DNA from: Cyanophora paradoxa CCMP329
Lineage: Eukaryota; Plantae; Glaucophyta
Assembly (NCBI GenBank): GCA_004431415.1
Contig: QPMI01000658.1
Span: forward strand, 1-64,000
Length of the DNA: 64,000 nt
Direction: 5' to 3'
Position numbers and translations under genes: made by a program. Under the pieces are notes generated by a model. The model was not told the DNA's origin. It did no database searches and was given only the letters and a program-made list of their open reading frames with translations. This document shows, piece after piece, positions 6,878-62,588 of this stretch (the first letter of the stretch is position 1; each line of letters begins with the position of its first letter).

Positions 6878-8228
6878 GTGGCGCGCTCGGGGCGGCCGGC
6901 GAGCGCGTCGCTCGCCGTCGCGGCCCTCGTCGCCTCCGCCGTCGGCGCGCCCCGCCCCGCCCCGCCTCCCGCCCCCTTCCCCGCGCCCCGCCTCCCTAGG
7001 CCTAGAGCTTTGGACGTGCGCCCCCGCCGCCGGGCCGGGTCCTCCACCCTTCCCTTACGCTTTCCTCGCCCCGCCCCGCCCCCGCGCGCCTCCCATCCGC
7101 CCCGCAACTACCCTCCCCATATGCATCCGGATCCCTCATCCCTCTTCCCCTCCCCATACGCATCGATATCCCCCCCACACCCCCCCCCCTACACCCCCAC
7201 CCCCGCGGCGCCTTAAGTTCTCCTCGCACGCGAGTCCCCCCCCCCTCCCCCCTCCCCCCCCCCCCCCCCTTCCCCTCCACCTCCGCGCGCGCCTCACGCC
7301 CGCGCGGCAGTGCACAACACGCTGCTGCTGGGGACGACGCTCGCCGTCGCCGCCGCCCGCTCCCTCCCCTGGGACTTCTCCCCGGAGGCCCTGAGGTGAT
7401 CATGAGGATAAATCAGGATCTAACTGTGCACATGTAAGGATCGAAGGATCTTATAATCTAATTAACATCTAGGTATAAACAACATTAACTAAGGATCTAA
7501 GCATGTAATGTAATGTAAGCTAGAGGCGCGACAGCCGCCCCGGCCCCCGCCCTCCGTCTCCGCTGCTGCTACTGCAGCTGCTCGCGATCGCCGCCGTTCC
7601 CGCTCTCGCCTTCTCTAGTGAGATAGGCCCTGGGCCTCGAGCTCCCCACGGGCTTCGCTTTTAATGTTCGGGCCCGGCCCGGCCGGGGCAGGTGGCGGCG
7701 CTGCTGGCGGCGCAGGCGGCGTTCGTCCTCCTCGCCCGCCGCCGCTCCCTCTCCCCGCCCCGGTACGGTGCGCCCCCTATCATCCAAACATCCAAGCATC
7801 TAAGCGTCTAAGGTTTCTAATCTTTGGATATAAGAATCTCTCTCCCCTCTGTCGCCCTCCCCTTCGATCCCTCTTAAGCTTGGATCCCTTGGATCGAAGC
7901 CTAAGCGTCTAAGCGTCGAAGCTTCTAAGGAGCTAAGGCCTGACTCTAGACTCTAGGAACGGATCGCTGACTCTGACGGTGCACGCGCCGCGGCGGGGCG
8001 GCATCTAAGCGCCGAAGCGTCTAAGGATCTCTCATCTGCATATATGGATCTAAGGATCTCTCCCCGCCCGGGGGCACTCCCGTTCGTTCACTCTTGGTCC
8101 CTTCGGTCGCCGACTCTGTCGGTGCACGCGGAGCGGCGCGCAGGGCGCTGGCGTGCGGGGCGCTGCTGCCGGCCTCGCTGCTCCTCGCCGCCGCCCTCCG
8201 CGCCGCCGGCTGGGGCTCCCCCTACTAG
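6878..8228 (+). pseudogene. Second copy of the last four exons of the NCL-like exchanger (partial duplicate or alternative 3' exon set)
   Basis: Exons at about 6878-6944, 7311-7387, 7692-7762 and 8144-8228 are near-identical to 2663-2729, 3472-3548, 3793-3863 and 4162-4246, with intact splice sites and stop codon. Only a MITE-disrupted remnant of the preceding exon exists (about 6316-6575). Confidence 0.7.
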
Positions 8229-8919
8229 CGAGAGCTAGGCTGTGCGGCTCCCATCTTTTGCGAATAACCTCCCCGCGAGCCCCTGATCATGAGTATACAT
8301 AGCGCCTCCCCCGCCCTCCCTCTCCCCCTCCCCCCCCCCCCCCCCCCTTTCCCCAGCTAGCTCACTCATCAGCTGGAGCTCATCGTTTCTCCCCCGCCGC
8401 CCCTCCCCCTCTCCCCCCGTCCCCCTGGGGCTTCCCCTGCTAGCGTCCCCCGAGCCCTGTACATACGAGAGCGATCCGAGGTTTGCATCTCAGTCATACG
8501 TACGGGCTAGCATACATACATACGTCAGTCAGGAGCTCATCGTTCGCTGGTTTTGGTCATGCTTCGAATATCTAAGTGTTATGAATACGCCGTGACGGTC
8601 CGCGAAATTGCGAGAATCTACGAGCAAGAGCTAGACTGCGGACTAGCTATATAGCGACCGTCGGACACGAGAGGGAGCGAGACTACCGTATATCTAGAGC
8701 GGCCGGCACTTCGGATTCGACCTCAAATATATATTCAATTGCAAGGCTTCATGATCAAATACTAATTGCCGGGGTTTGGAGCTAAAGCTCACACAAAGGC
8801 ACAGTGATGTATAATTAGAAACGCTTCGAAGTCCTATCATGCTTGTGTACTTGGAAGTCTTTTTAGAAAACAGAGACCGTCGGACTGGATAGCGGCCTTG
8901 TAGGCCGTCGAGTTGCGAC

Positions 8920-10683: not shown

Positions 10684-11656
10684 GATGACTCAGTTAAGTC
10701 AAATGGCCCGCGCTGTGTTACGCCCGAGCTGTGCTATATACGCAGAGCAAACTGTGTATGTATAGCTGTGGTCAGAGTTTGTCAAGGTGTATACGTACAC
10801 CACTGAAAAAGCGCGCACACGTGCACGTCACGGCGTAGACGTCCGACTGGCACAAGGTCGTAGCTGGCTTTGCTAGATGCGCATGCAGCACTGCAGCTTG
10901 CTTAAGCTTCCAAGCCTGGCAAGCTTGCTTGGCAAGCGCCGCTAACGTTAGCTGTACTACTGCTGCTGTATACGTAGCCGACTACCGTACAGTACTAGCT
11001 GTAGTAGCTAACACGCCTGCGGAGAAGCCGGACGTGCTACGTTATACGTACGGGACGGTACGGCCTGAAATGGTTCGGCCACTGAGTCACGGTATACTAT
11101 GATAGAATAGGCCTAGGAGACCCGGGTCACCCGGCCCGAGTCAGTGTGACTCATCATGATCACTGAGTCAGTGACTCACACAGTGAGTGACCCGACTCGA
11201 GCTCGGCCCGGCGGCCGGCGCGGGCCGGGGAGTCCGAGTCTGTCCGACCGTCGGACGCCGGACCGAGGGTCCGACGACGAGTCGACGACTCGCGAGTCGC
11301 GACGGCCCGGTACCGCTGTTACCCAGTACTTGAATTATAAGTTTATAACTTAGTAACTCAATCTATCAGTACAGTATAATACAGTATATAAGCCAGGGCC
11401 GCGGGCTTCATGTTGGGCCCTAAGCTTGAGCGATCGTGCGAGATGAATTGAATGTCGCGATCGCGATCGCAAAACCGAATCGATATATAATCGAATATTC
11501 GTTGTGCATATAGAAATCCAAAAATGAATTAATGCATATTGGGGGTACAATAGATGGCCGGGCGGCTGCGGCGCAGAGAACAAATGTTCACAGTATTGGA
11601 GTAACATTCTGTTCTTTTTTAACGTTTTCACGTAAATAAAATATTCACAGTATTAG

Positions 11657-11912
11657 TGTCGCGTGCCGCGATTCCCTCGGATTAGGCTAGCCGGCAGTCT
11701 ATGCGTAGCCGCTAGCCCTAGTCTAGTGCTATCGAGCAGCTAGCTCTAGCACTCTCTGTATTCTGACTTAGCGCCGGGCGCGACTCCGTTTGGGGGTACG
11801 CGATCCCTGGACGGGTACACTTGTGAATAGACCACTTGTGCTCCCAGCTACAGCCCCAGCCCGTGCGTGACCGCACGGACGCTGCACCGGGTGGGAATCC
11901 TCTCATCCGACA
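11657..11912 (+). repeat. 5' LTR (256 bp)
   Basis: Exact direct repeat of 30087-30342; TG...CA ends with a 5-bp terminal inverted repeat. Confidence 0.97.
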
Positions 11913-12457
11913 GGCGCCATCTGCTCACGGAGCCAGAACCCCGATCATCAGCGACCCGTCATCAGCAACCGACCCAGCTCGGCGACCGCGGCTCAGCCGG
12001 CGCGCAGGTAGACCTCAGCAGAGGTCGTGGGTCGCTTCTCGCGCCCCGCCTGCGCCGCTCCGGGCTGATCCGCAGTTGGCGACCGAACATTCTGGAAAGA
12101 ACCAGAACTTAGTCCTGCGGATCCAGGAACGCGCGCGAATACCGAGGGATCCCCGTCCCGATCGGATCGTCGCCGTTTCCTGAGCGAGCTGCGTGCGAGC
12201 CCGTGGGATCATTCCTGATCGGTCGCTAGTCACTCGCCGCGACGCCAGCCTTCTCCGGCTGTTGCGATCGTGCTGGACAAGACGAAGAGCGATCGGATCG
12301 ACGGCTGAGGCGTGCGCGCCCGAGCTGTCTCCGGAATCGCCGCAGCCGAGCTAGTGAGCTTGCTCGCCGCTGCTGTGGACCACGACGGCCTCGGATCTCG
12401 AGCGAGGCACATTCTCTCACGGAAAAGCGTGGCATTACGTCGCCGCTTGACCTGAGA

Positions 12458-14034
12458 ATGTCCTCGGGGACCGGAGCCTCCGCGGAGTTCGTCGTCCGGG
12501 CCGCGCACGCGCGTGGCGCCGCCGACATGGACTCTATGAGCGGATCAAATGTTTTGCAATGGATCCAGAGCCTGCCGAAGCTGCCGCCGGGCAGCGATCA
12601 GCGCACGGTTCAGGACCACCTCCGCCAGTTCGAGAGCTGCGCGAGCATGAGCAAGGACTTGCTCAGTGTCTCGCCGACTGCACACATTGAAGTGCAGAAG
12701 CGAACTGGGTGGGCTCTTCTCGGCACGCTAGATCACGGGCACCCCGTGCGCCAGAACATCTCGCTGTTCCAGAGCGCCGAGCAGATCGACACTCGCGAGC
12801 TCGAGAAGCTGAAGGCGTACCGGGCCGAGCGTGCGCGCACGAGCACGGCGGACCCGCGAGACGTCGCGATCCTCGAGACGCTCGACGAGAAGATCGCGCA
12901 AGCCGAGGAGGGCTTGCAGCGGACCGCCCTCACGGTCACGTACACCGCGATCAGGCGCCGTCTCGAAGATGACGCCGAGATGCGGAACCCTGACCGGTAC
13001 AAGGCGCTCCTCGACCTGCCGCACGTGGGCGAGGCGCCGGAGGCGTTCTATCGCCGCGTCCTCGACTTGAGCATCATCCCGGAGTGCCGCGAGGCGCACG
13101 AGACACCGCTTATGGCACTCATGCGCCACGCGGGCCAGATGCTCAAGCGCCGCACTCGCAATCAGTGCCGCGACTTCGAAGACTCCGAGATTTCGGACAC
13201 CGATCGCCGGCACATGATGACGAACTTCTCCACGGCTCGGAAGATCTATGACGAGCTGTCGCAGAAGATCGCGGACCGCGAGATCACGGGACCCTCTGCG
13301 GTCATCGACCTGGTAACCAAGCGCACCAATGAACTGGGCGCCTGGGACGTCGATATCTCCAAAGTCCCCGGCTCGGCCCTAGTGCTGGGCTCGCGCGGGA
13401 CGCCGCTGCAGGCGCCCACGGCTGCCTCGCGCACGCCGCAGAGCGCGCCGCCGATCACGCACACGCCAGCTGTCCCCGTCGTCCCCTCGCGCTCGAACGC
13501 GGGCGCCGGCGCGGGCACGCGCATCATGCTCGCGACGACGGTGTCGGAAGCCGAGATCGCAGAGCTTGAGGCAAACGCGTACGGGTGGGACGCGGACGAC
13601 GCCGAGGATCAGAACGCCGAGGTCATCTCGTTCCTGCAGCTCATTGCTCGGGACGAGCCCCTCGTCGTAGTCCGCGCGCTCTACCCGTCGGCGTCCGCAC
13701 CGCCGCCCCGCCTTGACGACCCGGTCTATCAGCAGAAGATCAAAGACTTCCTGAAGGCCCGGGGTCTCCCCGAGAAGCCCCGGCGGCCGTGCCACTGCGG
13801 CGAGTCGCACTACTCGTTTGAGTGCCGGACCAACCCGCGGCCTCTGCCCGAGTGGTCGGCAATCAACCCGGCCAAGCGCCGCGGGCCAACGGGCGCAGGC
13901 ACCGGTGACCCGAAGCGCCGGTTCTACCCGCGCCGCAGGGTGGGAACGGCCGCTCGAGCCCCCCGCCCCAGCAAGCTGCAGGGCCCCGGGCGTGCTACAA
14001 CTGCGGCAAAACCGGCCACCTGGCCGCGTCCTGC
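12458..14034 (+). CDS. gag: Gag region: putative capsid plus two Zn knuckles
   Basis: First ATG ORF after the 5' UTR; atypical knuckle CHCGESHYSFEC at 13790-13825 and canonical CX2CX4HX4C CYNCGKTGHLAASC at 13993-14034 (in the -1 frame). The capsid assignment is positional inference. Confidence 0.75.
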
Positions 14035-17000
14035 CCGGCCCAGGCGCAGACGCTCGAGGCCGCGGTCCGCCGCGCGCTTGCAGAACACGCCGCCGCCGCT
14101 GCAGCCCCGCCCGTGCCGCCCGCGACGCCGGCGCCCTGGGCTGACCCCAACGCCTTCACGATCGCGCGCGCCATGCTCGAGCAGGCTGCCCGAAGCGGCG
14201 CCGCCGGCCCGTCCGCGACTGCACTGCTTCCCGCGCCGACCGGCGGCCACGGGTCGGGGCCCACGGCGGCCCCGGCGCCCGCCGAGCTTGGCAAGGAAAA
14301 GCACGTGTACCGTGTGCGCATCGTGCGCAGCGACGAGGCGTTGGTCGACGATACCTTCCGAGCCTTCACCGCAGCGGCCGCGGCGCACGCCGCCGCGCTG
14401 CAGGACCCCCGGACGGCCCCGCTCTCAACGCGGTCGCCGCAGCCGCCACCGCTTTCGCGATCGCAGTAGTGCAGCTGTCCGGGGAAAGCCGCCCAGACCT
14501 GTGCCCCACGGGAGCCGAGAGGCCGGCCCCCTGCGAGGCGCAGGACCTGTTGCCGACCCGCCCGGAGTCGGGCCTGGACGAGGGGGAGAAGAAGGTCGCG
14601 TTCGACGCAGTGGACGCCGCCCTCGAGGAAATCGCACTCCTCTTGGCGGCCGCCCCGGACCCAACGGAGGTCGAGGGCGCTGACGCAGCAGCGAAGGGTC
14701 CCGCGCCGACGCCCGTGCCGACTTCTTTCCCCGCCGAGCTCGCCGCCGGCATCGTGGACGCCGCCCTTGAGGAGGTCGCACTCCTCTTGGCGGCCGCCCC
14801 GGACCCAACGGAGGTCGAGGGCGCTGACGCAGAAGCGAAGGGTCCCGAGCCCGCGACGGAGCTCGCTCCCACCAAGTCGGTCCCGAGACCGCCGCCGCCG
14901 AGGCTCCGGCGGACCCCGCCGCCGGCGTGGGCTGCTGCCTGGGGTACTCCTCGGGGCCGAGACGGTAGCGAGCCTCGAGGTGACCGACGACGGCGCCTCC
15001 CTCGCCGACGAGGACGCGACCGTAGCGTCTAAGGAGACCCTGCGCCTCAACCGCGCTCGCCTCCTCAGCGCTAGCCCCGGCCTAGACCTCACTCACTTCG
15101 GAGCCGTTGAGTTAGAGCCGGTGAAGGGCCGCGAGCACGAGCTGGGGCCCGTTCCTCTCTGGAACGTGGACGCGCACAAGCTGAAGGGCGCCGCGTCGGT
15201 CCCGCTCGACCGCGCGGCGTTCCTGTACCCAGCGCCGTGCGAGACTCACTGCGGCTGCACTGTGAGCGAGGGGCTGATCGAGGTCCGGGACGAGCAGTGG
15301 TATGCCACTGCGTTCCGCTGCCCGGCCCGCACCCGCCAGACGCTCTCCTTCTTGCTTGCGGCGTTCTCTCAGCCGCTCGCCACCGAGAGCACGTACCTCG
15401 GCTCGCGGACCCTCCCCACTGCGTTCCTGCAGATGCTGGGGCATGACCCGCTGTCCCAGGACACGCTGGCTCACGCCTGGCCGACGCACTATTATGAAAT
15501 CATGAGCCTCACGCACCAGGCCTCTCGCGTCGCCGCGAAGTGGGCCGGGGCCACGCGTGGCCGCACGCCGAGGGCCTCACGCCCGAGGGTCGCCCCGCAG
15601 TCGAGCCCGACGCCCACAAGCTTACGAAGCTTGGGGACGAGTGCGTCGCTACCGCCGGCTGGCTGGAGCCATACCGCCGCCACTGGAGCATTGGCCAGCA
15701 CTCGCCCGTGGCGGCCTCTCTCGAGCCGCACGAGATGACAGTGTCGGGCCGCCGCCAGCTAATCGAGCTGAGCGAGCTGTTGCCGGCACAGGACCGCCTC
15801 CGCCTTGCGTGCGCCTCGACTGTTGCGGGCTATTTCCTGCACCGCGTCGACTACGGTGCCCCGGGCACCGCCGGCGCCGTCGAGAAGATCCTCGGCCGCT
15901 TCTTTAAGTTCGCCGAGCCGCTCATGGTGGACGCGCGGGTCGACGCCTATGGCTTCGCCCTGCTGGCCCTCGAGCACGCGATCCAGTGGAAGACCGTGGC
16001 TTGCATCGGCGGCCGCGCCGGTCCCCACGACGCCCACAAGAGCGCCGTTGCCCTGGCCGACGGGAACCCTCTTGTCCCCTCGGACTCGGAGTTCACGGAA
16101 GCCGTTCACTCGCTTGCCGTCCTGGCTGCCTCCGTTGAGGTTCCGATCCCGGGGCGGGCACGTCTCCGCTCGGATCGGGACGCCGAGGGATGGCTGCGGG
16201 CAGCGCTCGCGGAGCGTCTGACTGCGTACCGCGACGGCCGTGCCCCCGCCTTCCCGGTCGTGAGCGAGGGCGAGTCCCGCACGGTTGAACGCGTTCCGGT
16301 GGAGCCCCGCGTCGCCGCCGCCCGCGTTCTGCACCTCCGGGACCTGCACTTGTGCGACACCTGGCTGCACTGGCCGCGCCTGCACGGGGCAGAGCCTGGC
16401 ACGTGGAGGGTCGGCCGCGTGCGCCCGATCACGCGCACCACGCAGTTGCCCCTGCACGGCACGACGCGAGGCGGGCAGCTGCCCACGATCGTGCCTGAGG
16501 AGCTCTACGTGCTGAGCCAGCTCGGCCCGCGCCCGCCGCTCACCGCCCTGTGCGATGCAGCCTGGGCCCGCACGGTTCCCGGATCCGCCGGGGCCGCGGA
16601 GCTGCTCCGGTACATCGAGGGGGCCAAGGCGGGCGACCGGGCCCACCTCGTCATTCTATTCCGTAGGCTGCTGAAGAAGCGGGCCGGTTTCAATGACGAG
16701 GCTGTCAAGGACATGATCGCGCTCGTGGAGAAGTGGCGCACGGATGCAGGCAGCCGCACCCCCACTCCTCTCCACGACCTGCCCACCACGCCGAAGCCGG
16801 CGTCGGACACGACGGGCGCCTACACGGCGAAGGCCGTCAGCGCGACGATCAAGGAGGCTAAGGCCTGCCTGCCGCCGCGCCCGCCTGTGAAGGCGCTCTC
16901 GCCGAGGGACCCGCCAGCGCCGGCGCGGCCGGCGCCCGTTCCTGTCCCGCCGCCTGCACCGACGGCGAAGCTCGTGACCTTGCACGCCGCGGCAACATGG

Positions 17001-20000
17001 CCGCCGCTTGCGAGCCCGATGGCGCCGCGGCCCACCGCCGCTCCGACGCCGCCCGCCACTGAGCCCGCGCCTGTCGAGCCTCGCCTGAGCGAGCCGCTAC
17101 TCGACGTCGCGCGCGCGACCGCGCCGGCTCCCGGCAGGCCGCCCGTCGCGGCGAGCGTGGCCGCGGGGACGGGGTCGTGCGCGTCAGCACCCGTGGGCGC
17201 GGCTCGCAGGGGCCACGAACCCGCAGCGCCCGCCGTGGGCAGGCTGAGGGGGAAGACGCCGAGATGGGCGAGCGGGGCGACGGCGATGAGGCGCCCGAGG
17301 AAGCGCCGCCGCCGCCGCCGCCGTCGGCTATCGATGAGAACCTGAGCCAGCGGGCCCTGTACGAGGCTATGGGCGTGATGAGCGGCGTCCTCGCAGTGCC
17401 GGGGTGCCCGCCTCGGCTCTGTGAGGGAAACAGATCACCGAGTGGCCCATGACGGCCCGGTCTGATCTCGCCCACCGCTGGAGCATCCCCTTCGACGCAC
17501 TGAAGGGCACGTTCGAGGACCTGCGGGTCCCGCACCTCAAGGCGTTTCTCGCCAGCGAGAGGAGCACGCCAATCCAGAACCGCCTGGATGGGCCGCCCGT
17601 GCCGCACGAGGAGCCGCCGGAGGGCCGCGTCGCGCTCAGAGCCGATCGCACCGTTCGCCTCGCGCGGCTCAACGCGGCCGCGTTCGAGCTCTTCATGATC
17701 GCGCTGGGGCTCCGTGGCCCCGTCACGCCCCACTCCCACGATCTCCCGTTCCACCTGCATGAGTGGACGGAGCAGCAGTTGGAGCACTTCCTGACTCTGC
17801 GTTGGACGATCCCTGCCACGCGCCTGCCGCGGTGGACGCACGGGGGCCGCTTCAACCCGAGCGCGGCCGTCATCCCGCCGCAGTGGGCCCAGTACCTCTT
17901 GCGTGCTCACACCATGTTCCGCGCCGAGGCGGTTGGGACCACCGTTCCCTCCGCGGAACGCGCCGGCCTGGAGTTCCCGTACGGGGTTCGCTGGCTGCGC
18001 CGCCACCTGCAGCTAGGGACGCGCGCGCAGGAGGAAGCCGCCGAGAGCGACCCGCACAGGGGCTTGGCCCTGACCGCCCAGCGCGCGGCCTTCCAGGAGA
18101 AGGTCTTGCATGCCCTCGAGCGTCACGCTGCACGGCAGTCGTTCACGTTCGACGATGCGCTTGTGGGCACCTACATCGCCGATGAGCCTGAGCCCCGCCT
18201 CGAGCCGCTCGACATTGACCATGTCGAGAGCGAAGAGGAAGAGGGCGAGAAGGAAGAGGCGCCGGCTGCCATCCCTGCGGCGGCGCACAGGCCGTTCGAG
18301 CCGCACAAGGACTGGCAGCCGCGGCCGCTGTTCTCGTTGGCGGACCCGACGTACGCCAACGATCACAAGCTCTTGCGCGAGTACATGGACCGGAAACACG
18401 CGTTTTTCCGGCCCCTGGAATGCTATGAGCCAGGGTTCACTGAATGGGCAACGCTGCCCGCGATCAGCTACCCCTTGCGCTGGCAGCACGCCGGCGACGT
18501 TGACGAGTACAACGTCGACGTGCTCACGCTGCAGGACCAGCACATGGGCGAGCTGTGCTCAACTATGCTCAAGCGCGTCGGCCCCGCCGCGCGCGGCATA
18601 GTGAACTGGTTCTCGCTCGTAGGCCCGCCTCAGCGGCCGTTCGACGAGGATCCGGAGCTCTTCGACCTGCAGGGGCTTGCATTCCCGCACGCCGCCTGCG
18701 GCGTCAGCTTGGATATCGTGCAGTACCTCGCGGTCGGGACCCGTACCGCACAGTCTGCCGTCCCGACGTACACGGGCGCCTGGGATCTCACGCACGAGGG
18801 CACAGCCCACGCACCCGTGTGTTCGACCCTGGGCCAGGTCTCGCGGGTGCTGTATACCGCCTTCTTCCACGAAGGCGGCGGCGCGCGGAACGCCCGCCGC
18901 CGTACATGCCGCACCCCGAGCGCCCCACCCTGCACACCTCAGTCTTGGGCGGTAACATCGCCGACCCGAACGAGGAGGACGCCAGGACGCCGTTCGCGAC
19001 CCGCTTCGCGCGCGACGTCGCCGTGCTGGCCCTGCTGCGCCCGCTCGCCGACAAGCGCGTCGAGAACGTTGAGGGTCGCCTGCAGACGCGGCGCATCTAC
19101 GCGCCCCGCCTCGTGGCAGGCACGGCCACGCCCGCGCCGAACGCTGCCTGCGACAAGGACGTCGCAGGGGGCGCGCCGCACCAGCGCGAGAACAAGAAGC
19201 TGTGGCTCGCAGTGACGGTCGCCCAGCTTGCGAGCCAGCCCAAGAAGAGCCACGCGAACCCGCGGCTCGTCACCGCGTTCGGTTACGAGCTGCCGCCTTT
19301 CCCGAACTCACCTCCGGGGACGTGCCCTTGGGCGCCGATCCCGGCGGAAGAGGAAATCCTCGCGACGGCCATCGGTTTTACGCTGGCCTGGCACGCGCGC
19401 TTCTTCCAGCGTCACGCGCCGGGCAAGCACCTCCGCAGCCAGCACTGGGCTGATGACTTTCTGTCGGCTGCGGCCATGGACGTCGAGTCGGAACGCCCGG
19501 CTGACTACGTCCCCGAGATCGCTCGGGCGGTCGCCGATCACATGGATGACTTCAACAAGGTGTTGAACTCGTTCCGCTGCGTGGTGCCGGACGGTCTGAT
19601 GGTGTTCATTCACGAGGCCTTCCTGACTAAGCCGACGGCCAAGCCGGACCGCGGGTCCGACGTCTTGCCTCAGGGCAAGAAGGTCTTCGACGCGGACGCG
19701 AGGCCGACGTACCCGGACGGTCATCCCACGCTTGCGTGGAAGTTTGGCCCGAACAATGCGGTCGTGCCGGACCACGAGGGTCGTGCGGCGATCTGTGGGC
19801 GGATCCTGCTCGCGATGCTGCAGGGCTTCCAGTATCCCCGCATCCCGCTGCTCGCGCAGCGGGTGGACAACTGTGCGCCCCTGAACGCCGCCATGCCCCA
19901 GAACGTGGCCGAGGTCTTCAGGGCCCTCTTGCGCACTATGACGAGGGATGAGTGCGCCGACTCGGATGCCCGCGCGCTGGCGGACGGCATCCGCGCGTAC

Positions 20001-23000
20001 CTCACAAACATGCCGCACGGTCTCGGGTACCAGCGTCTTGAGCTCGGCTCGCCCCCGATGGCCGGCGCCGAGGACGCGTGGCCCGCCGGCGATGACCTTG
20101 GCGCCGGGGGCAAGAGTGGGATACAGCGCCACCTTGAGGCCGCCCGCGCCGCCGAGGAGCTGGAGAACTGTCCCGGGAACTTCCCGCTGGGGCTCATCTT
20201 TACCGATGAGGCTATACCCCTGCGGCCTCAGTTCGAGACGATGCTCCGTTCGCTCTACGCCGATCTGAATGTCGCGATCCGCCTCGCGCGCCCGATCGAC
20301 TGGGAGACGGACGACCCCGTGCTCCCCGACTGGGACGTTGAGGCTCTGCGCCCGGCGCTGATGTGGGACGCGGTCCAGAACAAGGGCGCCGCGCCCTCGG
20401 CCCGGCGCAGCCTGACTGCGACGGCGGCTGTCGATAAGGAGGCCGAAAGCCTTCTGGTTCGCACGCCGTACCAGCCGATCTACGAAGGAGCGGTCCGCGC
20501 GACGTGGGCGGGCGTGCGGTTCCAGCCGCCCTCAACCATCGTCGGCGGGCTCGCGGACGACCCCGCCGAGGCGGCGCCATCCGCCACCCCGTCGGCGCCC
20601 GCGCCGGCGCAGGCCGCTGCGCAGACCGCCGCGCCGCCGACGGCGCCGCAGCAGGCGCGGCCCCGGCGCAACGCGGGCCAGGCCGTTGGCCGAGGCGGCC
20701 GCGGGCAGGGTCACCAGCGGGGCGGCCGGCACCGCGGTCGCGACGGCCGAGGCCACCGTGACCGTGGCGGCGACCGCGGCGGTGGCCAGGCGCAACCCGC
20801 ACAACCCGCTGTCGACCCGAACGACCCGTTCGGGCTGGATGCGTTCCTCGCGCGGCAGCAGGGGTATGACCCCAAGACCATGCGCGTAACCGTCTCGGAC
20901 GGGAAGGTGAAGGTCGAGCGGATCGCCGAGAGCGCTCCGCCAGACCAAGCCCCGCCGGCTGAGACTCCCTCCCGGACCTTGATGCCGCCGCCCAGCTCGA
21001 GCCGCCAGGCCGAGGCAAGCTCGAGCCGCAGGACGACACGGCCAGTCGCGCGTCGCAGGCCCGCCGGACCCCTGAGCGGGCCTCGTCTCAGCGCCGCTCG
21101 CGCACACCCGAGCCGCGCCGAGCCCCGTCCAGTCGCCGCTCTCGCACCCAGACAGGCGCGAGACGCGGGGCCCCTCCACGCGCCGCGAGCGCTCCCCGGA
21201 GCCCCACCGGCAATCCCGGGCGCCGCCGCCGTCCCGCCGTTCGTTGGAACGCCGCGATCGCGAGGGCTCCCGACGCCCTTCGCCGGACCGCCGGGACCGC
21301 GAGGCCTCCCGCCGCCGCTCCCCGGACCGCCGTGATCGCTCGCCGCCGCGCCGCGACCGCAGCCCGCCGAGCCGACGGTCCACGGCTCGCGACACTCGCG
21401 GCAGGCGGAGCCCTCGCCGAGGCTCGCGGGAACGCCGCCGGAGCCGAACACCGTCCCGCTCTAGCTCCCGCTCGCGCTCGCGCGATCGGAGCCCGAGCCG
21501 GAGCCCCCGCCATGACGATAAGCGGCGCAAAAGCTCGAAGAAGGGCTCGCGCGACCGCGCCTCGCCGCGAGACCGCCGCAGCCCTCGCAGCAGCCAGTCC
21601 TCTCGCCGCCCGCCGGACCCGCCGCGCGGCGCCGTAGACGCTGCGTACAAGCGGCACGAGAACGACGCCCGCCTGCGAGGCTGCCCGCCCACATTGCGCG
21701 AGCTCTTCGACATGGTCTGGAAGGCGCAGTACGCTGAGATGCCAGACTCGCTCTCGGCGTCCGCGCGAGCTGAGCAGGCCACCGCGCTGGTCCTGATCAA
21801 GCTCCAGAACCAGATGGACGCTCAGTCCGCGTCGTCCTCGGCCCGCGCCGCCGCGCCACCATCGGGTGGGCAGCCGCCGACGGGCGGACGCAACGAGCGC
21901 CAGCAGCCCTTTCTAGAGGGGCCTGAGGGGCAGAGCGAGGCCGGTCCGCAGTCGGCGGCGCCGTCCAAGCCTGCGGAGGGTCGCGCCTCCATCTCTCAGG
22001 CCCAGGAGCGGTCATCGCGTGCGAGCCAGGCCGAGCCGCCGCGCGCAGACCAGTCGACGCCGGAGCAGCCGCGCGCCTCAGTGGCCGCGCCGCGCGCCTC
22101 CGCCGCCACGACTTTCAACCCCAGGCTGACGTCCCAGCAGGGGCCTCCTGCAGTTTGTGCGCGAGTGCTCGAGCTGCCGCGACGTGAAGATCCGGGGCCA
22201 AGGGGTCACGGAATTGGGGCTTTGGCTTCAAACAGTCGAGCGCCAGATCCGCACCGCCGCTAGCCACGCCGAGACGCGCGCCAAGCCCGGCGGCGCTCAG
22301 AAGGTCTCAGACGAAGCCTTCGCCCAGGCAAAGCAGGCCGCTCGGCGGGCCCTGGAAGACGTCTGCCGCGCCCTCCGGGCCGGCATCGATATGCAGATCA
22401 GCCTCTCCGCTGGGAGACGGGCATGATGATCTCGCTCCTCCCAGACGGGCCCCGTGCCGATCTCGAGGCTCTGCGGGCCACGCTCGATCGCACCAAAGAC
22501 TGGCGAGCCTTGCTTGAGCGCGAGCGCCAGCACGAGGCTCGCGTGGCAATGCAGGCCGCGGCAAAAGCCAACCCAAAGCCCTTCTTCGCGGTATACACCG
22601 TCGCAGAAGCGTCGTCACCCCGCGGGCACGAGGCCCGCGCGCCCTGTGACCTTCCCGCCCACTTGCATACGCCGGCGTCGGTCCGGGCCGCTGTGCCGGT
22701 GCCGGCGGACGAGAAGTACATCTCGATCCGCCGCGTCCAGACGGTCGTCCACGAGCCGCCCGCTCAAACAGTCGCGCCGCCGGCGCCAGCCGCGCCGCCC
22801 GCCCGGCCCCACCAAAGAGCCGCGAGCCTGCGCCGGCCTGGGCCCGCCGCCTGCTGCACAAGCTCGGGCCGCGCTCGACCGTGCTGGTCTTCAACTGGCT
22901 GTCGAACCCCGCGCAAATGCTGCAGGTCGATCCAAAGACCCTGGAGCCCGCCTTACGCGCGGTGCATCAGGCGATCATGGACCGCTACGGCATCTCGATG

Positions 23001-26000
23001 CGCAAAACGGGCTACAAGGCCCCGCCACGGCCGACTCGCGCGTGGTTCTCGGGTTCAGCGCCGACAGCGGCGTTCGCCCCGCAGAACGCGCTCGAGGCCG
23101 CCGCGATCATTTACCCCGAGGGCCTGACCTCCGACGAGGAAGCTCTCATGCCCGCGGGCCACGCCCTGGGCTCCAAAAACCGCCCGTCCCTCGCCGTGCC
23201 CCGCCCAGCAGAGGAGACGCCGCTGGGAACGCGCGCCGGCTATGACCCGCCCAGCGACGAGTTGCTCTACGCCAACCGCCACGGCCCGGGCCCGCGCAAG
23301 CGGACCAAGCCCTCGCCGTTGGCCGACCAGGCAGAGCAGCGCCGAGTCGCCGAGCGAGCCGCGGCTCGCCAGTCCCGGCCCCCATCCCCAACCGCAAGCG
23401 CAACGGACCTGTCGGGTCCACCCGCGCCGCCGGAACCAGAATTCCACGTCCGCCGCGCCCGACCTAGCTTCCCGCGCGACCGGGCCCTGGAATTCTTCCG
23501 GCCAAAGACACTGCACATTCACGGCAGCATTGCTATGCGCCTGCCGAACGGCCGCTCCGGCGCTGAACGGCCCGCTCGCATTGTTGTCGACACGGGCGCC
23601 CAGGGAACTGTAGTTCCCCAGGAAGTCCTCGACCGCCTGCCGCCCGACGAAGTCAATTACGTCGAGGGCCACACGATAGTCCGCGGTTTCATGGACCGGG
23701 ACAAAATTCGTTGTCGCCGCGCCGACGTAGTCTTCGTTCTGGGCTCGCTCCGCTTCTGCCGCCGCGTCTTCGTCGTCCCGCGCGGCGCCATGGGCGTTGA
23801 GCCGGACATTCTGCTCGGCCTGGACGCGATCCAGGCCGTCCACGGCCAGATCGACACGACGCTGTCCGGGTGGTGCCTCCGGGCCCGTGACCACCTGCAC
23901 CGCGAAGTCGTCGTCCCTTTTCGGCTCCGGACCAGCTTGGGATCCTGGTCCGAGTCCTGGGACCAGTAAAGCTCCCCGTCGGAGAGGCCCTCGTCCCATG
24001 CACGCTCAATGGGCAGGGCCCGGCAACGCGTGAGTTGCCGCACCTCTACGTCGAGCCGTCGCCGGAGTCCCCGCAAGCCTTGGGCGTACTCTGCCCTTAC
24101 CAGCTGCATAATCACCCGGGAGACAAAATGTTTCACGTGCGGTTGTGCAATCCTGGCCGGCAGCCGGTAACCCTGCCGCTAGGATCGGTAGTAGCGGTCG
24201 CTTCGGCGGTCGCCCTACCGCCTGGTGATTTTGAGTACGAACCTGAGCAAATGCCTTGTAGTGCGAGTGCATTGACAGACCTCTTGATTCGCCGGCTGCG
24301 AATCGTGCCTGCCAAACGCCGCACTGGACTCCGCCACTTTAATAGAAAAGCACGCATGCTTGGCGCGGCATATGAGCCCGCCAAAGACGTTGAGAAAATA
24401 ATCTCCACCCTACGTTCTGTCGTAGATGAGGCGGAAAAGCAGCGCGCTCTGTCTAGCGCAGCGCCTGCTGAGCCCGCCGACCCACCCCGCGCACCGCCCT
24501 ACGACGTCGACGATATAGTCGTCACGTTTGGCGAGCTGCCCTTCGACACAGCCGACCGGCCGTTGCAGGACCTTGATGCTATGAGCATCATTAGCCTCGA
24601 CGACGATGCTATGAGCACGTCGTCACGAAGCGCGTCCCCAACGCCGGCCCCGATCACAGGCCCCTCGGTCGACGAGTTCGTCGCCGCAGTCGAGGCAGTG
24701 TCCGTCCCCAGAGACGCCACCCTGCGCTCGACCTTCCCCGGTCTCTCCGAAAAAGCGGAGCGCGACTTGCTCGATGCAGTCCGCGCCATGCGCGGCGACG
24801 TTACGGTCCGCAAGGCCGCACCGGTCGCCGACGCCGAGGCCCCACCCAGAGTGTGGTCACAGCCTCGCTTTCGGCCCGGCCCGATGCCCCACCCCTACGA
24901 CTGCAGCACCCGACGCGAAGCCCGCTGAGGCACCGCGGCCGGTGCCTAATGCAGAGGAGGAGTGGCAAGAGCTGCTGAAGAAGATTCCTGAGCTCGGCTC
25001 TCACCCGTCAATCACGACGGCGCAGAAAGCCGAACTTCACGCGCTCCTGCGGCGCTACAAGGATGTCTTCGCAGACAAGGTCGAGGCCAAAGAGGGCACC
25101 AGCAACCTGCTCTATTACGAGCACGTGATCAAACTCACGACTCGCCTTCCGGTGTTCACGCCTCCGCGGCGTATGAACCCGCACGCCGAGGAACACGCCC
25201 GCAAGGAAATTCAGAAACTCCTTGAGCTTGGGCTGATCGAGCCCTCCCAAGCGGCATATGGCTCGCCGGTAGTGCTGGCCCCCAAAAAGGACGGCACTTG
25301 GCGTTTCTGTGTCGACTATCGGAGGCTGAATCAGATCACCGAGCGGGACGTGTTTCCCCTACCCCGCATAGACGACCAGCTCGAGCGCCTCCGCGGCTCG
25401 ATGGTCTTCTCGACTGCTGACGCGACTGCCGGCTTCTGGCAGCTGCCTCTGCACCCCGGCTCCCGAGCCTACACTGCATTTGTGGTCCCCTGGGGTCACT
25501 TTCAGTGGAAGGTTACGCCGTTTGGGGTCACGAACGGGCCCGCGGCATTCTCCCGCGCGATCACTGCGATCCTGGGCCCCTTGCTGACCACCTGCGTCGT
25601 CGCGTACATCGACGATATCACGGTCTTCTCACCGTCCATCGATCAGCACCTTCTAGACTTGAAGGCGCTCTTCGAGACGATCTCTAAGGCGAACCTGCGC
25701 CTGAAGCCGTCGAAGTGCCGCTTCTGCGTGCCTGAAATCGACCTTCTCGGCCACCGCATCTCCGCCGAAGGGATCCGCCAGGACCCTGCGAAGACCAAGG
25801 TGATCACGGACTGGCAGACGCCGAAGAACGCGGACGAGCTCCGCTCGTTCCTCGGCCTCGCCGGCTACTACCGCCGCTTTGTCGAGAACTTCTCCAAAGT
25901 GGTGCACGCCATGCAGCGCCTTCTATTGAAGGACGCCGTCTGGAGTTGGCCAGAGGACGGCCCCGCCGACCGCGCCTTTAAGGAGCTGAAAGAACTCCTG

Positions 26001-29000
26001 GGCCGCGATATTATATTGCGGTTCCCGGACTTCTCGAAGCCCTTCATTCTCCAGACGGACGCCAGCACCTACGCTATCGGCGCAATTCTGAGCCAGGCCG
26101 ACGACAAAGGCGTCGAGCGGCCGCTCGCGTTCATCAGCCGCACGCTGCTGCCGGCCGAGATGAACTACTCCGCTACGGAGCTGGAGTGCCTCGCAGTAGT
26201 CTGGGCCATTAAGTATTGGCGCCACTATCTGCTGGGCGGCCCCCAGTTCCTGGTGCGGACCGACCACCACGCCCTCCAGTGGCTGAAGACGCTGGACCCG
26301 ACGACGGGCCGCCTCGGTCGCTGGTCCCTGCTCTTGCAGGCCTACGACTTTGAGATCGTCTACCGCCCTGGCAAGCAGAACGGGGGTCCCGACGCGTGCT
26401 CGCGTCTCCCTAAGGACCACCCCGTCTGGCAGCCAGGCGGTGCAGACGGTTCCTCGTCCAAGCCCGCGGCCTACAAGGGCGCCGAAGGCTTCGGCATCCC
26501 GCAACATGCTGTAGGGGCTGAGCCTGAGGATCCCGACGTCCCGCTGGGCATCTTTAGGATGCAGCTGGGCCCGACCGAGCGGGCCCTGCGCCAGCTCGCC
26601 AACTCCGCCGGCTTCCGCGCGGAAGCCCCAGCCGAGGGTGGCCGAGCCGCTAGACGCCGAGCGCCCCGGGCGGCGCCTGCGAGCGCCCCCTCTTCCCGCC
26701 GGGCCGCTCCTCTTATGCAGAGGAGGAGTCGCGGCCCCCTGTGCCAGCCAGTGCTCCTGAGGCCGAGCCCGACGCCGGCGCCCCTGAAGCGCCCGCGCCC
26801 GAGCCTGAGGGTGAGGCTGGCGGTGCTGCGGAAACCGATTCCGACGCCGAGCCCCCGCCGCCAGAGCGCGCGCCGCGACGCCTGCCCCGCGAGCTCGCCA
26901 AGCTTGCTGCGTCGGCTGGGTTCGCTGAGGCCAAGGCCTCCGCCTCGGCTACTGACGCCGCCACGCGCAAGCGAGCGCGGGCCGCCCCAGAGCGCTTCGC
27001 GCCTCCCGCGCCAGAGTCGGTCTCGCCGCCCCGAAACGACGAGAGCCGGGCCCGGCGCCCGCTGTCGAGGAGCGCGAGGCTCCCTCGGACGCGGAGATGC
27101 CCGACGCCCCTGAGGGCGACCTGGGCGCCCCGGCCGCGCTGCTAGAGGACGCTCACGCAGAGGCCGAGGCCTCGGGCGAGATCGATGACGAGTCGCTGCC
27201 GGAAGGGCCTGTCCCCTCCGACGCCTGCGACGCTGACGGCTTCCCCCTCGCTCTTGCGGAGCGAGTCCCGAAGCGCTCGGAAACCGGGCCCCGTCGGTGG
27301 GGCGCCAAGGGATTTGCCGAGCCGCGGCCCCTGCATCCCGACGCGCTCTTCCCTCGCGGCCCCGCCTTGAGGCGGCAGCCTCGAGATGAGTACAACACGC
27401 GCCACTGGCGCTCCCCGGTCGACCCCTCGGATCGGCCGGTGCCGATTCATATTGAGTGGGAGCCGGAGGACCCTGAGGGCGAGCCGCCTCCCGGGCCTCC
27501 GCGCCGACGCTCGCTCTCCCGGAGACTGCTCGCCACCAGATCCGCGTTCGGCCGGTCCCCCCGGACCCCAAGCCAGCGCCGCGGGCTCGAGGTCGCCCCT
27601 CTGCCCGCGGGCAGGCTTCCGACGACGCCGCCCCGCTCGAGCCTGAGACGGTCGCCGCCGAGGCCGCTGCCCCGCAGCGGTGGGTAGAACTCGACCCTAG
27701 AGGCCGGGACGTTCGCCCGCCGTGCAAGCCGGTCTTCGTGGATACCGTCCTCGACGCGTGGGCCTGCGGACCCTCGCCAGCCGTCGATGGGGCGCTCCCC
27801 GACGCGCTGCGCCGTATGTTCCCGCCCGAGAAGCGCAAGCGTCTGCTCGCCGCTCAGAAGGAGGATTCCTTCTGCAAGAAGCTTCTCGCCTTCCACGCAG
27901 AGGGCGAGAATCCAACTGTCTGTACCCGCGGCTCGAGGCGCGACGCAGATCCCTGCTCGCCCAGCTGCGCTCACTGCCTGCGGGCCAAGGAGCGCTTTGC
28001 ACGCCTGGCCGGCGAGTTCAGCCTGGCCGACGACGGCGTCATCGAGCGCAACCCCTTGGTCCCTGCCGGCCGGTTCCTACCCGTCTTGCCGGACGCTTGG
28101 ATCGACAGGGTGCTCTACGCCTATCACGAGGGCTGGGCCCATCGAGGCGCGCCCGTGATAGCCCGTCGGATCGCCCTGCGGTTCTGGTGGCCTGGCATGT
28201 ACGCCTCCATCGCTCGCTTTGTGCGGTCGTGCCCGCACTGTCAGTTCGCGAAGGCCGCGAAGCCCCGCCGTACCGCCATTCAGGTGATACAGCCTTCGGG
28301 CAAGGGAGACCTGTGGCAGGTGGATATCTTCCACTTGGATATGCACGAAGACGGTTCGCGATACATCATCGCGTACGTCGACGCATACACCAAGTTCTGC
28401 TATATCTACCCGCTCTCCCGTATCTCCGGCGAGGCCTTGCTCGCCACCGCGATCGACTTCTATACGCACGAGGGCGTGCCCGCGCGCATCCTGACGGACC
28501 GCGGGTCCCAACTCGTTGGGGGCGCGTGGAACGCGTTCTTCAAGGAGAAGGGTACCCGGTTCGTGCACGCGGCCGCCTACCACCACGCCTCGAACGGCGG
28601 CGCCGAGCGCCTGGGCGGAGTCTACAAGACTCTCGCTTACGCCATGTGCCGTGAGCACAAGCGGCCGCTCTCTGACTGGCCTCTTTACAACGCCGATATC
28701 GTTCTCGCGTTGCGGACCACCGTGCACTCCGCCACCGGGTTCTCCCCGATGGTCTTGCACCGCGGTTCTGAAGTGCACCTGCCCTGCGAAGTGCGCTTCG
28801 GAGCCGGCGTCCGCTTCGTGAACCCCGACCACACGCACCCGGCTGATTACCTTCTCGCGATGACGCGAGCTGCCGCGAGCGCCGACGCTGCCTCGCGCGA
28901 GTACCGTCGGTTCTATCGGAACCGCATGGTTGCTCGCACCGGCAACCCGCCTCATCGTCGCCGCTTTGAGGTTGGCGACAAGGTATTGTGCTGGATGGGC

Positions 29001-29398
29001 GAACACAACAAAGGGCTGTACAATTCGTGGGTCGGGCCCTACACTGTGACTGGTGTTAACCCTGGCGGTTACACCTACACGGTCAAGGGGTCGGCTAAGC
29101 CCTACTCCGCCAAGGACGATGCCCGTACCCGTCCTCTGCGTGAGACTGTTGCCCACATCGACTGCATGCTTCCGTTCCGCACGCGTCTCTCCGAGTCTCA
29201 AGCCCGTCCCCGCGTTGGTCGGCCTCGGAAGACTGCTGTGAACGCCGACGAGCCGGCGATCGACCCCGCACTCGCGGACTCGCCCGCTCAAGAACAAAAT
29301 CCACCTCTCGCCCCTGACGTCGACGCCGAGGGCCCGAGCGGGCTGCCGAGGGCGACGAGGTTGAGATGGATGACGCGATTTTGGTCGACGACCTGTGA
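12458..29398 (+). CDS. Gag-cargo-Pol polyprotein of about 5,650 aa after joining about 21 single-base -1 shifts
   Basis: Successive ORF fragments join without stops when one base is restored at about 13929, 14408, 14883, 14930, 15548, 17237, 17426, 18894, 21026, 21148, 22120, 22142, 22412, 22803, 23920, 24888, 24893, 26695, 27059, 27491 and 29341. The joined frame ends ...EMDDAILVDDL* at TGA 29396-29398. Confidence 0.75.
14610..14851 (+). repeat. Internal coding duplication: about 98-bp unit, 144-bp period (VDAALEE[IV]ALLLAAAPDPTEVEGADA.AKGP x2)
   Basis: Near-identical copies start at 14610 and 14754. Confidence 0.9.
23510..23920 (+). CDS. Retropepsin-type aspartic protease domain
   Basis: IVVDTGA (DTG at 23589-23597) and DILLGLD motifs. 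Confidence 0.9.
25020..26410 (+). CDS. pol: Reverse transcriptase and RNase H (Ty3/Gypsy type)
   Basis: SPVVLAPKKDGTWRFCVDYRRLN, PLPRID, PFGVTNGPAAF, YIDD (25605-25616), FLGLAGYYRRF; RNase H motifs TDAS, ELECLAVVWA, TDH, DACSR. No frameshifts in this block. Confidence 0.98.
27830..29180 (+). CDS. Integrase: HHCC, DDE core and GPY/F motif; no chromodomain
   Basis: HEGWAH...CPHC; WQVDIF, LTDRGSQ, SNGGAERL; TGFSP; FEVGDKVL...WVGPYTV. Confidence 0.95.
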
Positions 29399-30074
29399 GA
29401 AGCTCGTCCCATTGCTGTTCCCTTTGCGATCGCTGTGCTTGCGCCGTGGGGCAGATTTCTTTGCCCGCTTTGCCTCAGCCCTGGCTTCCGAGGTGGGACG
29501 TGGGTTGGCTGGTGGCCAATCACGGGGCGCCATCTGGGCCTTTCGTTCCATTTTCTGGGATCTGGGCCCGTCGCTCGTGGAGAGTGGCTGGGTGTAGGCC
29601 TCCCGGGTGCCTGCGGGTCCGTGAGGGGCTCGAGGTTGCTGGCTGGGGGTGCACTCAGTCGTGCCCTATCCTTTCGTTGGGCCTGATGGGCGGCCCGGAT
29701 ACCTCCTCGCTGGTTTCTTCCCGAGGCGGTGAAACTTCCCATCCGTGCCACTCTCCTTCGGCTCTCGCCGTTGGAGCGAGTTTGGGCCAGCTTTTGGGGG
29801 TTTCGAGTTCTATGCTTTTCCATCTTTCGAGCTTGGCCTGGGTTGCCTAGGTACATGCACTATGCTGGTATCGGCTCCTATTTCGGTCGCGAGCTATGCT
29901 ACCTGGCATATCTGGTTGCTGACGACGGACATTCTACTTCGAGAGGAGTTCACTCGCCGCCGCCCTGTCGCTGCCGTGGTTGGTGCACACCCCGGCGGTG
30001 GGGTGGACGCCCCGTCGAGCATGCAGACTCGACGTTCGGCTTGGCGCGGTCCGGTGCGAGGACGCACCGTATGC

Positions 30075-30085
30075 AGAGTGAGGAG
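30075..30085 (+). other. Polypurine tract (plus-strand primer)
   Basis: AGAGTGAGGAG, one base upstream of the 3' LTR start at 30087. Confidence 0.75.
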
Positions 30086-30086
30086 T

Positions 30087-30342
30087 TGTCGCGTGCCGCG
30101 ATTCCCTCGGATTAGGCTAGCCGGCAGTCTATGCGTAGCCGCTAGCCCTAGTCTAGTGCTATCGAGCAGCTAGCTCTAGCACTCTCTGTATTCTGACTTA
30201 GCGCCGGGCGCGACTCCGTTTGGGGGTACGCGATCCCTGGACGGGTACACTTGTGAATAGACCACTTGTGCTCCCAGCTACAGCCCCAGCCCGTGCGTGA
30301 CCGCACGGACGCTGCACCGGGTGGGAATCCTCTCATCCGACA
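30087..30342 (+). repeat. 3' LTR (256 bp)
   Basis: Identical to 11657-11912 and followed by the ATTAG TSD. Confidence 0.97.
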
Positions 30343-31928
30343 ATTAGAGTATAACATTCTGTCTTTTTTTTATTAAGGGCTTGATTGTTCAAGCAAACGG
30401 GAGCTTTTTTTACTCATTCCACTATATATATCTGTTCATCGAGATATCTCCCCTCTTCCCGGAGAAGTTCCCCCCCTTGGAGCCCCTTCCCTCCTTCCCC
30501 CCTCCGGATCCCCCTCGAGCTCTCTCCGGATCTCGATCCGCTCCCGGCCCTCCGGATATCCGACGGCGTGAATTCGAAGGGCAAGGGCACCCTCTAGTAG
30601 ATGTTAGAATTTTCTAGATCTAGAGGGTGGCTGGCTACTAGGCTAGCGCTGGCCATATATATGCATGGGGGGGTGCGCATGCACGTGGGTGGCATGCAGG
30701 TCGCGATCGAGTCCGAGAACGCGTGCCGCAGTGCGCATGTGCGCACTGCGATATCGATACATAGGCCTAGCCGCGGCGCCGCGGCCGGAGTCCGAGATCT
30801 AGACCGCCGGATCGGACTCCGAGAACGCGTGCGCGCAGCGATATATAGGCCTAGGTTTGCTATCTAGCTATATATAGGGCTTTATATAGCTGGCGCTCGC
30901 GATCGCTGCAGGGTTGGGGCAAGTGGCCATATGCATGTATATGGGCGCGCGGCCGCGGGGGCCGCGGCCGGCGTCGGCGGGCTCGTGGGGATGCAGATCT
31001 CAAGGGGCTGCTCGCTGTGTTAACGTTATAATTAATATTATAATATAATTACGTATACCACCGACGTGGGCGCCGGGAGCCTGCAGCTGGCAGCTGCAGG
31101 GCCGGCGCCGGCCGGGGCCGGTCGGAGTGAATTCGAACCGCCGGCGCGGGCGCCGCGCGCGGGCAGCCTAGCTGTACTGCAGATGGCCATGCAGACGGCC
31201 ATGCGCCTGCCGCAGTGCAGAGCTACAACTTCGGAGGCCGCTCGAGGGCCGGCTATGACCAAGGCGGGTGAAATTTGGTGCCGCAGTGCTCCGGAGCTCC
31301 CCGCTCGGGGAGGCACCTAGGCGGCGTGCCGGGCCGGGGTGCTGATCGGCTCTCGAGGTCAGCCAATTGCAAGGGGGGGGCCTTGGGGAAGGAAGGGCCG
31401 GGGAGGGGCCGCGGGAGCCGGGCCGGGCCCGCCTGCACTGCGGCACCTTGGCCCCGCGCGCCGCGGCGGGGCCGGGTCGCGGGCGAAGGTCAGACGGTCG
31501 GCCCGACCGCGGCCCGCGCGCGATTGAGCAGCACCCACCCTTGGCCTAGGCCTCCGGATCCCTCGAGCTCGCCCCGGCCCGGGCCCGGGGCCCACCGAAC
31601 GCGACGCTCCGGTCCCGGCGCAAGAAATTAAATCATTCGAATTAATATTCTACATGCACATGTGATCGCGAGTACCGTGTACGTAGTGCACGCGTACGTG
31701 TACGCACAAGCTGTAATGATAATACGCAGCTTAGATATAAACCGGAGCCCGAGGACCTACTAGGCTATAGAGCTATATCTAGTTTTATCTACATCGGTAA
31801 ATCTAAGCGCCGCGGCGGCCGACGACGCGCTGAATCATGATCATGATCAGTGCATCTAACTTTAGTAAGCGGCATATTAGTTCACAATATTAGTTCCTTC
31901 ACGCTGACGTTCTGTTCGCGCTGACGGC

Positions 31929-62575: not shown

Positions 62576-62588
62576 TACGTAAGCACTA

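Follow-up and report, generated by a model that had tools for sequence, protein, structure and literature searches.

Transcription, reverse transcription, and packaging are believed to set limits on how large a retrotransposon can be (PMC6431247; this statement and those below on Burro and Ogre come from excerpts of that paper). The planarian Burro elements (Burro/GYPSM1) are giants whose first open reading frame (ORF), ORF1, encodes 4,873 amino acids (aa), or 5,140 aa in Dugesia tigrina. Gag and its CCHC knuckles come first in Burro ORF1 and are followed by accessory domains that lie in frame before the protease. The Ogre elements of legumes owe their size largely to long terminal repeats (LTRs) of 1.9-6.5 kb, and their extras are one or two separate ORFs. 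The genome of the glaucophyte alga Cyanophora paradoxa has been described as containing LTR elements at 1.77%, with "little or no expansion" (excerpts of PMC6704402). Here we describe an 18,686-bp Ty3/Gypsy-type LTR retrotransposon of C. paradoxa CCMP329 that lies at positions 11657-30342 of the first 64,000 nucleotides of contig QPMI01000658.1 (this whole stretch is called the window). With considerable confidence the element can be read as a recently inserted copy of a multi-copy giant Ty3/Gypsy family, in which the frameshifts of the assembled sequence are very probably assembly errors and which is predicted to encode a single Gag-accessory-protease-reverse transcriptase-RNase H-integrase polyprotein of about 5,650 residues.

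Structure and reading frame of the element

The element and all of its features lie on the + strand. It is bounded by two direct LTRs of 256 nt each, which are 100% identical and have TG...CA ends; the 5' LTR is located at 11657-11912 and the 3' LTR, identified by repeat comparison, at 30087-30342. The pentamer ATTAG, read directly from the sequence, is present immediately outside both LTRs (11652-11656 and 30343-30347) and represents a 5-bp target-site duplication. The 5' untranslated leader (11913-12457) starts with a candidate primer-binding site (GGCGCCATCTGC...), and the 3' untranslated region (29399-30086) ends with a purine-rich tract (AGAGTGAGGAG) that directly abuts the 3' LTR. Once 21 one-base gaps are allowed for, the untranslated ends enclose one ORF for a single polyprotein, about 5,650 codons in length (12458-29398). 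The element is supported as a full-length, recently inserted Ty3/Gypsy-type copy whose size is almost all coding.

The domains recognized by Pfam follow the Ty3/Gypsy order along the element (zinc knuckle, protease, RVT_1, RT_RNaseH, Integrase_H2C2, and rve). Gag (12458-14034) is composed of a capsid-like part, which has no Pfam match, and two zinc knuckles, both of which are retained in a sister family described below (family B). Knuckle 1 (13790-13825) is a variant with the spacing CX1CX3HX4C while knuckle 2 (13993-14034) has the spacing CX2CX4HX4C, and the zf-CCHC match (E=3.4e-7) falls at 13987-14040 in the right frame. The aspartic protease (23568-23825; Asp_protease_2, E=5.6e-5) contains VDTGAQ at 23586, with DTG at 23589-23597. 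Between the protease and the reverse transcriptase (RT) is a conserved domain (23990-24400) that is 41-49% identical in the diverged Cyanophora families P0004, P0139, and P0140; it has no Pfam match, and a guess from a motif pattern that it is dUTPase-like was not confirmed. RT and RNase H occupy 25281-26345 (RVT_1, E=3.6e-35; RT_RNaseH, E=2.9e-40), with YIDD at 25605-25616 and the catalytic D/E/D of RNase H present. A low-complexity linker that is rich in Ala, Pro, and Glu by composition (26500-27700) leads from RNase H to the integrase (28089-29042), which is recognized by Integrase_H2C2 (E=5.4e-14), rve (E=1.6e-12), and its motifs: an HHCC finger, a DDE core, and a GPY/F module.

In the window as assembled, this coding sequence is not continuous. 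The longest + strand open frame in the literal sequence is 943 aa, and the coding phase, judged from guanine-plus-cytosine (GC) content by codon position (0.85-0.9 at third positions versus 0.45-0.5 at second positions), shifts about 20 times across ~12.4 to 29.4 kb. A stop-free crossing of the ORF requires at least 13 frame switches. Short-read contigs from three DNA runs (one from 2012 and two from 2024) were aligned to the element and differ from the window by 12 listed one-base insertions and 16 further ones, mostly at full depth. Each of the 12 listed insertions adds one C or G where a C/G homopolymer ends or begins, and none of these 12 differences is an over-call. Ten of them fall within the ORF (14881, 14952, 15546, 18892, 22801, 24844, 24891, 27028, 27517, and 29332) and the other two are at 29795 and 29839. 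A Viterbi model of codon usage that was blind to the contig data places slips no more than about 40 nt from 9 of the 10 insertions in the ORF, the exception being 29332, where the closest predicted slip is about 250 nt away. The numbers of gaps per aligned contig (2, 3, 8, 1, 2, 2, 1, and 1) equal the counts predicted by the codon-bias model.

The Viterbi model adds 11 missing bases to the 10 observed, near 13988, 14407, 17109, 17426, 20967, 21077, 22141 (two), 22403, 23916, and 26652. With these 21 gaps, the frame that opens with the ATG at 12458 meets no stop before 29396-29398 and contains (16,941+21)/3 = 5,654 codons. Its start (MSSGTGASAE) is shared with the sister-family gene models P0254, P0262, and P0134, and its stop with P0131 and P0137. 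Low-complexity sequence makes up ~18% of the polyprotein (1,011 of 5,647 residues). Among the 17 listed variants within the ORF (21 further variant rows are unlisted), 14 are synonymous third-position changes (p=4.7e-5), including all 4 of those listed in the RNase H-integrase linker, which are synonymous in the assigned frame.

The frame breaks are very probably homopolymer under-calls of the long-read assembly, since contigs of independent runs carry the extra C or G and always in homopolymers. The assembly behind identical gene models was produced from PacBio RSII data with Canu/Quiver and then subjected to majority correction with Illumina reads (excerpts of PMC6704402). Only 3 full-depth substitutions are listed over 19.4 kb compared with 28 insertions or deletions, which fits the pattern of sequencing error and not of decay. 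Gene models from other contigs span the breaks of the window (P0121 crosses 18892, and P0131 crosses 27028-29332) and need frame jumps at places different from those in the window, indicating that the same type of error is spread over the copies. Introns were considered as a source of the frame changes and rejected, as the changes are abrupt, leave no gaps in periodicity, and coincide with one-base differences in the reads. Alternatively, the element could be a dead copy that has really lost a base at each of the roughly 21 frameshifts, with the intact short-read sequence deriving from other copies. The Logan short-read contigs do merge all copies and discard rare variants, which speaks for this explanation. 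However, it is highly improbable given that the listed differences are without exception one-base under-calls in C/G runs with zero over-calls, that so few full-depth substitutions accompany the 28 indels, that the LTRs are identical, and that models on other contigs need their frame jumps elsewhere.

Several points nevertheless count against an intact, recently inserted element with a single frame. The pooling of copies and loss of rare variants in the short-read contigs mean that they do not prove the extra bases in this particular copy, and 11 of the 21 one-base gaps were inferred and not directly seen. The identity of the LTRs may be in part an artefact of cross-mapped correction of a polished multi-copy repeat. 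The candidate primer-binding site lacks TGG; the window holds no tRNA gene with which to compare it, and a search for a self-priming complement to the sequence after the 5' LTR found nothing longer than 8 nt. The Pfam score of the protease (24.2 bits) is marginally below the cut-off (24.3 bits).

An earlier note on this locus, made from the sequence, had described a recent insertion of giant size that is almost all coding, with identical LTRs, a perfect target-site duplication, intact catalytic motifs, and a polyprotein of about 5,650 aa. The LTR and duplication coordinates, the full-length frame, and the location of DTG, YIDD, the RNase H D/E/D, and the integrase HH-CC and D,D,E residues bear this description out. 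Its statement that about 17 kb is readable as one frame does not hold for the literal window sequence, where the frame is broken and about 21 single-base corrections are required. Its further description of the element as "probably active" drew only on youth and intactness and is overstated. One of the public runs is guessed to be RNA and yields a 373-nt exact contig (29356-29728) together with low-complexity scraps, which have no bearing on expression.

Replication of the element would be expected to proceed as in other Ty3/Gypsy elements. Transcription would start from the 5' LTR, and the whole ORF would be translated and cleaved by the element's own protease. The accessory part between Gag and the protease would thereby be set free as additional proteins; it consists of at least three conserved orphan blocks, with linkers between them that are Pro-rich, RGG, and Arg/Ser-rich. 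Reverse transcription would take place inside Gag particles, and the integrase would insert the new copy with a 5-bp duplication. This young, multi-copy, short-LTR element with 17 kb in one ORF indicates that the presumed size limits are exceeded not only in planarians but also in a unicellular alga.

The insertion site of the element sits inside a small local duplication. A motif of about 28 nt (CACAGTATTrGAGTA..ACATTCTGT.CTTTTTT) occurs twice, once 57 nt upstream of the element and once spanning the target site (11594-11656 and 30343-30370). The GC content of the flanks (0.45-0.54) is well below that of the element itself (about 0.7).

The region between the nucleocapsid and the protease

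The region that separates the nucleocapsid from the protease accounts for more than half of the polyprotein. About 3,185 codons extend from the end of knuckle 2 (14034) to the protease DTG (23589), in agreement with the approximately 3,100 aa given in the earlier note, and the accessory part itself is about 3,170 residues long. The region has a strong codon bias and contains no stops, compared with about 52 expected from base composition. Three blocks of globular appearance (14953-16874, 17425-~20400, and 21814-23567) are located between linkers. The region begins with an Ala/Pro-rich stretch (14035-14952) in which a 48-residue unit occurs twice (DNA repeat 14593-14718 and 14737-14862). Accessory block 1 (14953-16874) is an orphan of about 640 aa that is 47-60% identical to family B, and it is followed by a linker that is Pro-rich and Arg/Gly/Glu-rich by composition (16875-17424). 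Accessory block 2 (17425-20400), also an orphan, is about 990 aa long and is 46-47% identical to family B up to 19721; the model P0261 is 46% identical to it over 20178-20396. Downstream are an RGG/RG-rich box of 33 aa (20688-20786), recognized by composition, and an Arg/Ser-rich stretch of 152 aa (21154-21609) that is 60% R+S and includes a 39-nt tandem repeat (21235-21339). The third orphan, a pre-protease block (21814-23567), is 54-58% identical to the subfamily model P0137.

No similarity of these blocks to known proteins was detected. Pfam gave no match in the accessory region, either with the raw ORFs or with 16 in-frame pieces up to E=5, and four pieces searched against PDB sequences produced only two rows at chance level (E of 0.078 and 0.65). 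The ESM Atlas returned no usable match for P0121 or for 15546-16850, with recognition scores of 1526 and 1607, as for unrecognized proteins. The region shows no internal paralogy and no matches elsewhere in the window. A search for an Env-like membrane helix found none that was convincing, only weak Ala-rich windows.

The accessory region belongs to a multi-copy family and is not a one-off nested insertion. With 18894-20900 as the query, a word-based search yielded 8 proteins, every one a gene model from a single EukProt genome. P0121, which spans 17264-20876 of the window, was compared exhaustively by HMMER with 1.84 billion representative proteins and matched 16 proteins and nothing else; 13 of the 16 are named C. 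paradoxa, and the other three share the same "tig" names. The C. paradoxa contigs that carry gene models of the accessory region number 17, and 8 of them also have pol models no more than three gene numbers away. In public sequencing data, 93-94% of the sampled words of 14000-23999 were found in 20 of 24 listed runs of one organism. In each run the accessory contigs are covered about half to 0.8 times as deeply as the gag and RT contigs, by uncalibrated depths. Where they align, the other copies are 96-100% identical to the window, apart from one at 81%, and the apparent differences between copies are mostly false introns placed by the gene finder to skip frame breaks.

The sister family, family B, is represented by P0254 (1,795 aa) and P0262 (2,303 aa), whose colinearity with the window begins at the start codon and extends to 19721. 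Identity between family B and the window is 42-43% in Gag and 40-60% in the accessory blocks, and the aromatic, Pro, and Cys positions are conserved in a pattern typical of folded domains. The earlier note had regarded copies lacking 14.1-23.5 kb as a sign of a one-off nested insertion; the other copies and the diverged sister family carry this region.

The pol models of family B (P0132/P0133) are 90-97% identical to the window in RT and 84% identical in integrase, while Gag and the accessory part are only 40-60% identical. This mosaic could stem from very unequal rates of evolution in the two halves or, as it suggests, from recombination that exchanged pol between the families.

It is very unlikely that the accessory region is an old host-gene capture, carried as cargo with no role in the cycle of the element. 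Capture of host sequence is known for LTR elements (excerpts of PMC6431247) and the region has no retroelement hallmark, but all 16 matches of the exhaustive search map onto the element with no free-standing host paralogue seen. In addition, the pace of divergence is similar in the region and in Gag (42-43%), and in family B the region is in frame and colinear.

A second alternative accepts an intact element but not a single polyprotein: the accessory region could be expressed from spliced or internally initiated messages, or its separation from Pol could be regulated, as in complex retroviruses. The message (18 kb) and the product (620 kDa) would be of extreme size, and the Arg/Ser-rich stretch resembles the tails of splicing factors (in composition only). 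This arrangement is nonetheless unlikely, as a continuous, codon-biased, stop-free frame runs across all junctions when the gaps are taken into account, the Gag and accessory blocks of family B occur together in one 2,303-aa gene model (P0262), and polyproteins of this kind exist in Burro (excerpts of PMC6431247).

On the single-polyprotein reading, a role for the accessory region in the handling of long RNA (binding, export, or packaging) or in interaction with the host is a guess of low confidence, prompted by the RGG and Arg/Ser composition. Also tentative, and more doubtful than not, is the proposal that the region comprises several domains of undescribed folds or families that are kept by a glaucophyte-specific Gypsy lineage as a module for RNA handling or host interaction during replication. 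AlphaFold2 predictions gave a mean predicted local distance difference test score (pLDDT) of 38.5 for the piece 23915-24844 alone and 28.8 for P0121 with a 7-row alignment. Both predictions are poor, leaving the accessory blocks without a fold and the proposed role to composition (RGG and Arg/Ser) only. If the module reading is true, the region would enable an LTR retrotransposon with a single-ORF genome of 17 kb to express and package that genome and to copy it. The conserved, nonrepetitive orphan protein, about 2,400 residues whose sole known home is a mobile element, is useful for asking which extra functions retroelements can carry.

Relationship to ordinary and giant Gypsy elements

The lineage of the element was examined with a quick maximum-likelihood tree built from RT-RNase H sequences (47 rows: the window, all 16 longer mapped C. 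paradoxa models, and 30 named or metagenomic rows chosen from the matches). The window and the 16 C. paradoxa RTs form one clade on a long stem, separate from the rows of plants, fungi, and animals, with a Shimodaira-Hasegawa-like approximate likelihood ratio (SH-aLRT) support of 100. The named best RT matches are all Ty3/Gypsy-type pol proteins, including 17.6/297-like and fungal ones, with RT identities of 43-50%. Smaller Gypsy families of the same genome (P0161, P0162, and P0215) belong to the same Cyanophora RT clade and are 45-56% identical in RT. The giant accessory form seems, from the gene models, to be confined to a subclade of the window family and family B, since in these distant clade members the protease is only about 490-590 residues from the start, which corresponds to an ordinary length of Gag.

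The element shares with ordinary Ty3/Gypsy elements (Metaviridae) its LTR ends, the 5-bp duplication, the order protease, RT, RNase H, and integrase, the HHCC/DDE integrase, and the GPY/F module. It differs in having a polyprotein that is three to four times longer, in the absence of a chromodomain, and in its Cyanophora-only RT clade. Pfam matched no chromodomain (PF00385) in the integrase piece, so the feature that marks chromoviruses was not found. The linkers are also expanded relative to ordinary elements, with about 330 aa between protease and RT and about 400 aa between RNase H and integrase.

The closest described architecture is that of Burro, which like the element has a giant, single, Gag-first polyprotein with thousands of in-frame residues between Gag and the protease and extra sequence between the protease and RT. 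The accessory domains of Burro that lie in frame between Gag and the protease thus provide a precedent for the architecture of the element. The domains themselves differ: Burro carries MATH, BIR, BCL2-like, SUMO-like, env-like, and dUTPase-like domains, none of which was found in the element by Pfam (E<=5, 16 pieces). Burro exceeds 30 kb in total and its internal region can reach 25 kb, whereas the element is 18.7 kb with 256-bp LTRs, and the hosts are a flatworm and a glaucophyte alga, respectively. The ORF of the element, at about 5,650 aa, is longer than those of Burro (4,873 and 5,140 aa). If the reading given here is true, none of the retrotransposon polyproteins cited in the excerpts of PMC6431247 would exceed it in length. 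No planarian proteins are present among the 240 listed RT matches, and the likeness to Burro drawn here is one of architecture.

Ogre is likewise called giant, is of Gypsy type, and carries extra coding sequence whose function is not known. In contrast to Ogre, the element has LTRs of 256 bp and extra sequence that is in frame, so it does not fit the description of Ogre.

Literature searches found no published description of this Cyanophora family (Repbase and the supplements of PMC6704402 were outside their scope). The suggestion in the earlier note of a possibly undescribed lineage is consistent with this, but its designation as a new system is overstated in view of the architectural precedent in Burro, as far as the excerpts describe it. 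Its contrast with known giants was incomplete for Burro, whose in-frame accessory polyproteins it left out.

Gene annotation and other features of the window

The public C. paradoxa gene set splits the retrotransposon family into dozens of models (P0001-P0008, P0121-P0128, and P0130-P0143), and the predicted introns in the split models overlie one-base homopolymer errors. Spurious models of this kind inflate the gene and "orphan" counts in this model glaucophyte.

Elsewhere in the window are several smaller repeats. A segmental duplication of about 1.5 kb (2657-4281 and 6872-8236; spacing roughly 3.9-4.2 kb), with pieces that are 85-97% identical, is rich in poly-C and CCCCA-like low-complexity runs. 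A tandem array of a 51-nt unit, with about 13 or more overlapping register copies, is found at 40379-41290 within long open frames on both strands. Near the end of the window (61677-62579), a pair of 94-nt inverted repeats that are 91% complementary and 715 nt apart lies where the sequence is richer in AT, and an 80-nt direct repeat is close by (62498 and 62920). The inverted repeat pair may be a small DNA transposon or a miniature inverted-repeat transposable element. Open frames on the - strand at 43951-45087 and 50617-51411 have matches to Beta_helix (E=7e-9) and IPT/TIG (E=4e-6), respectively, and are probably exons of host genes for surface or secreted proteins.

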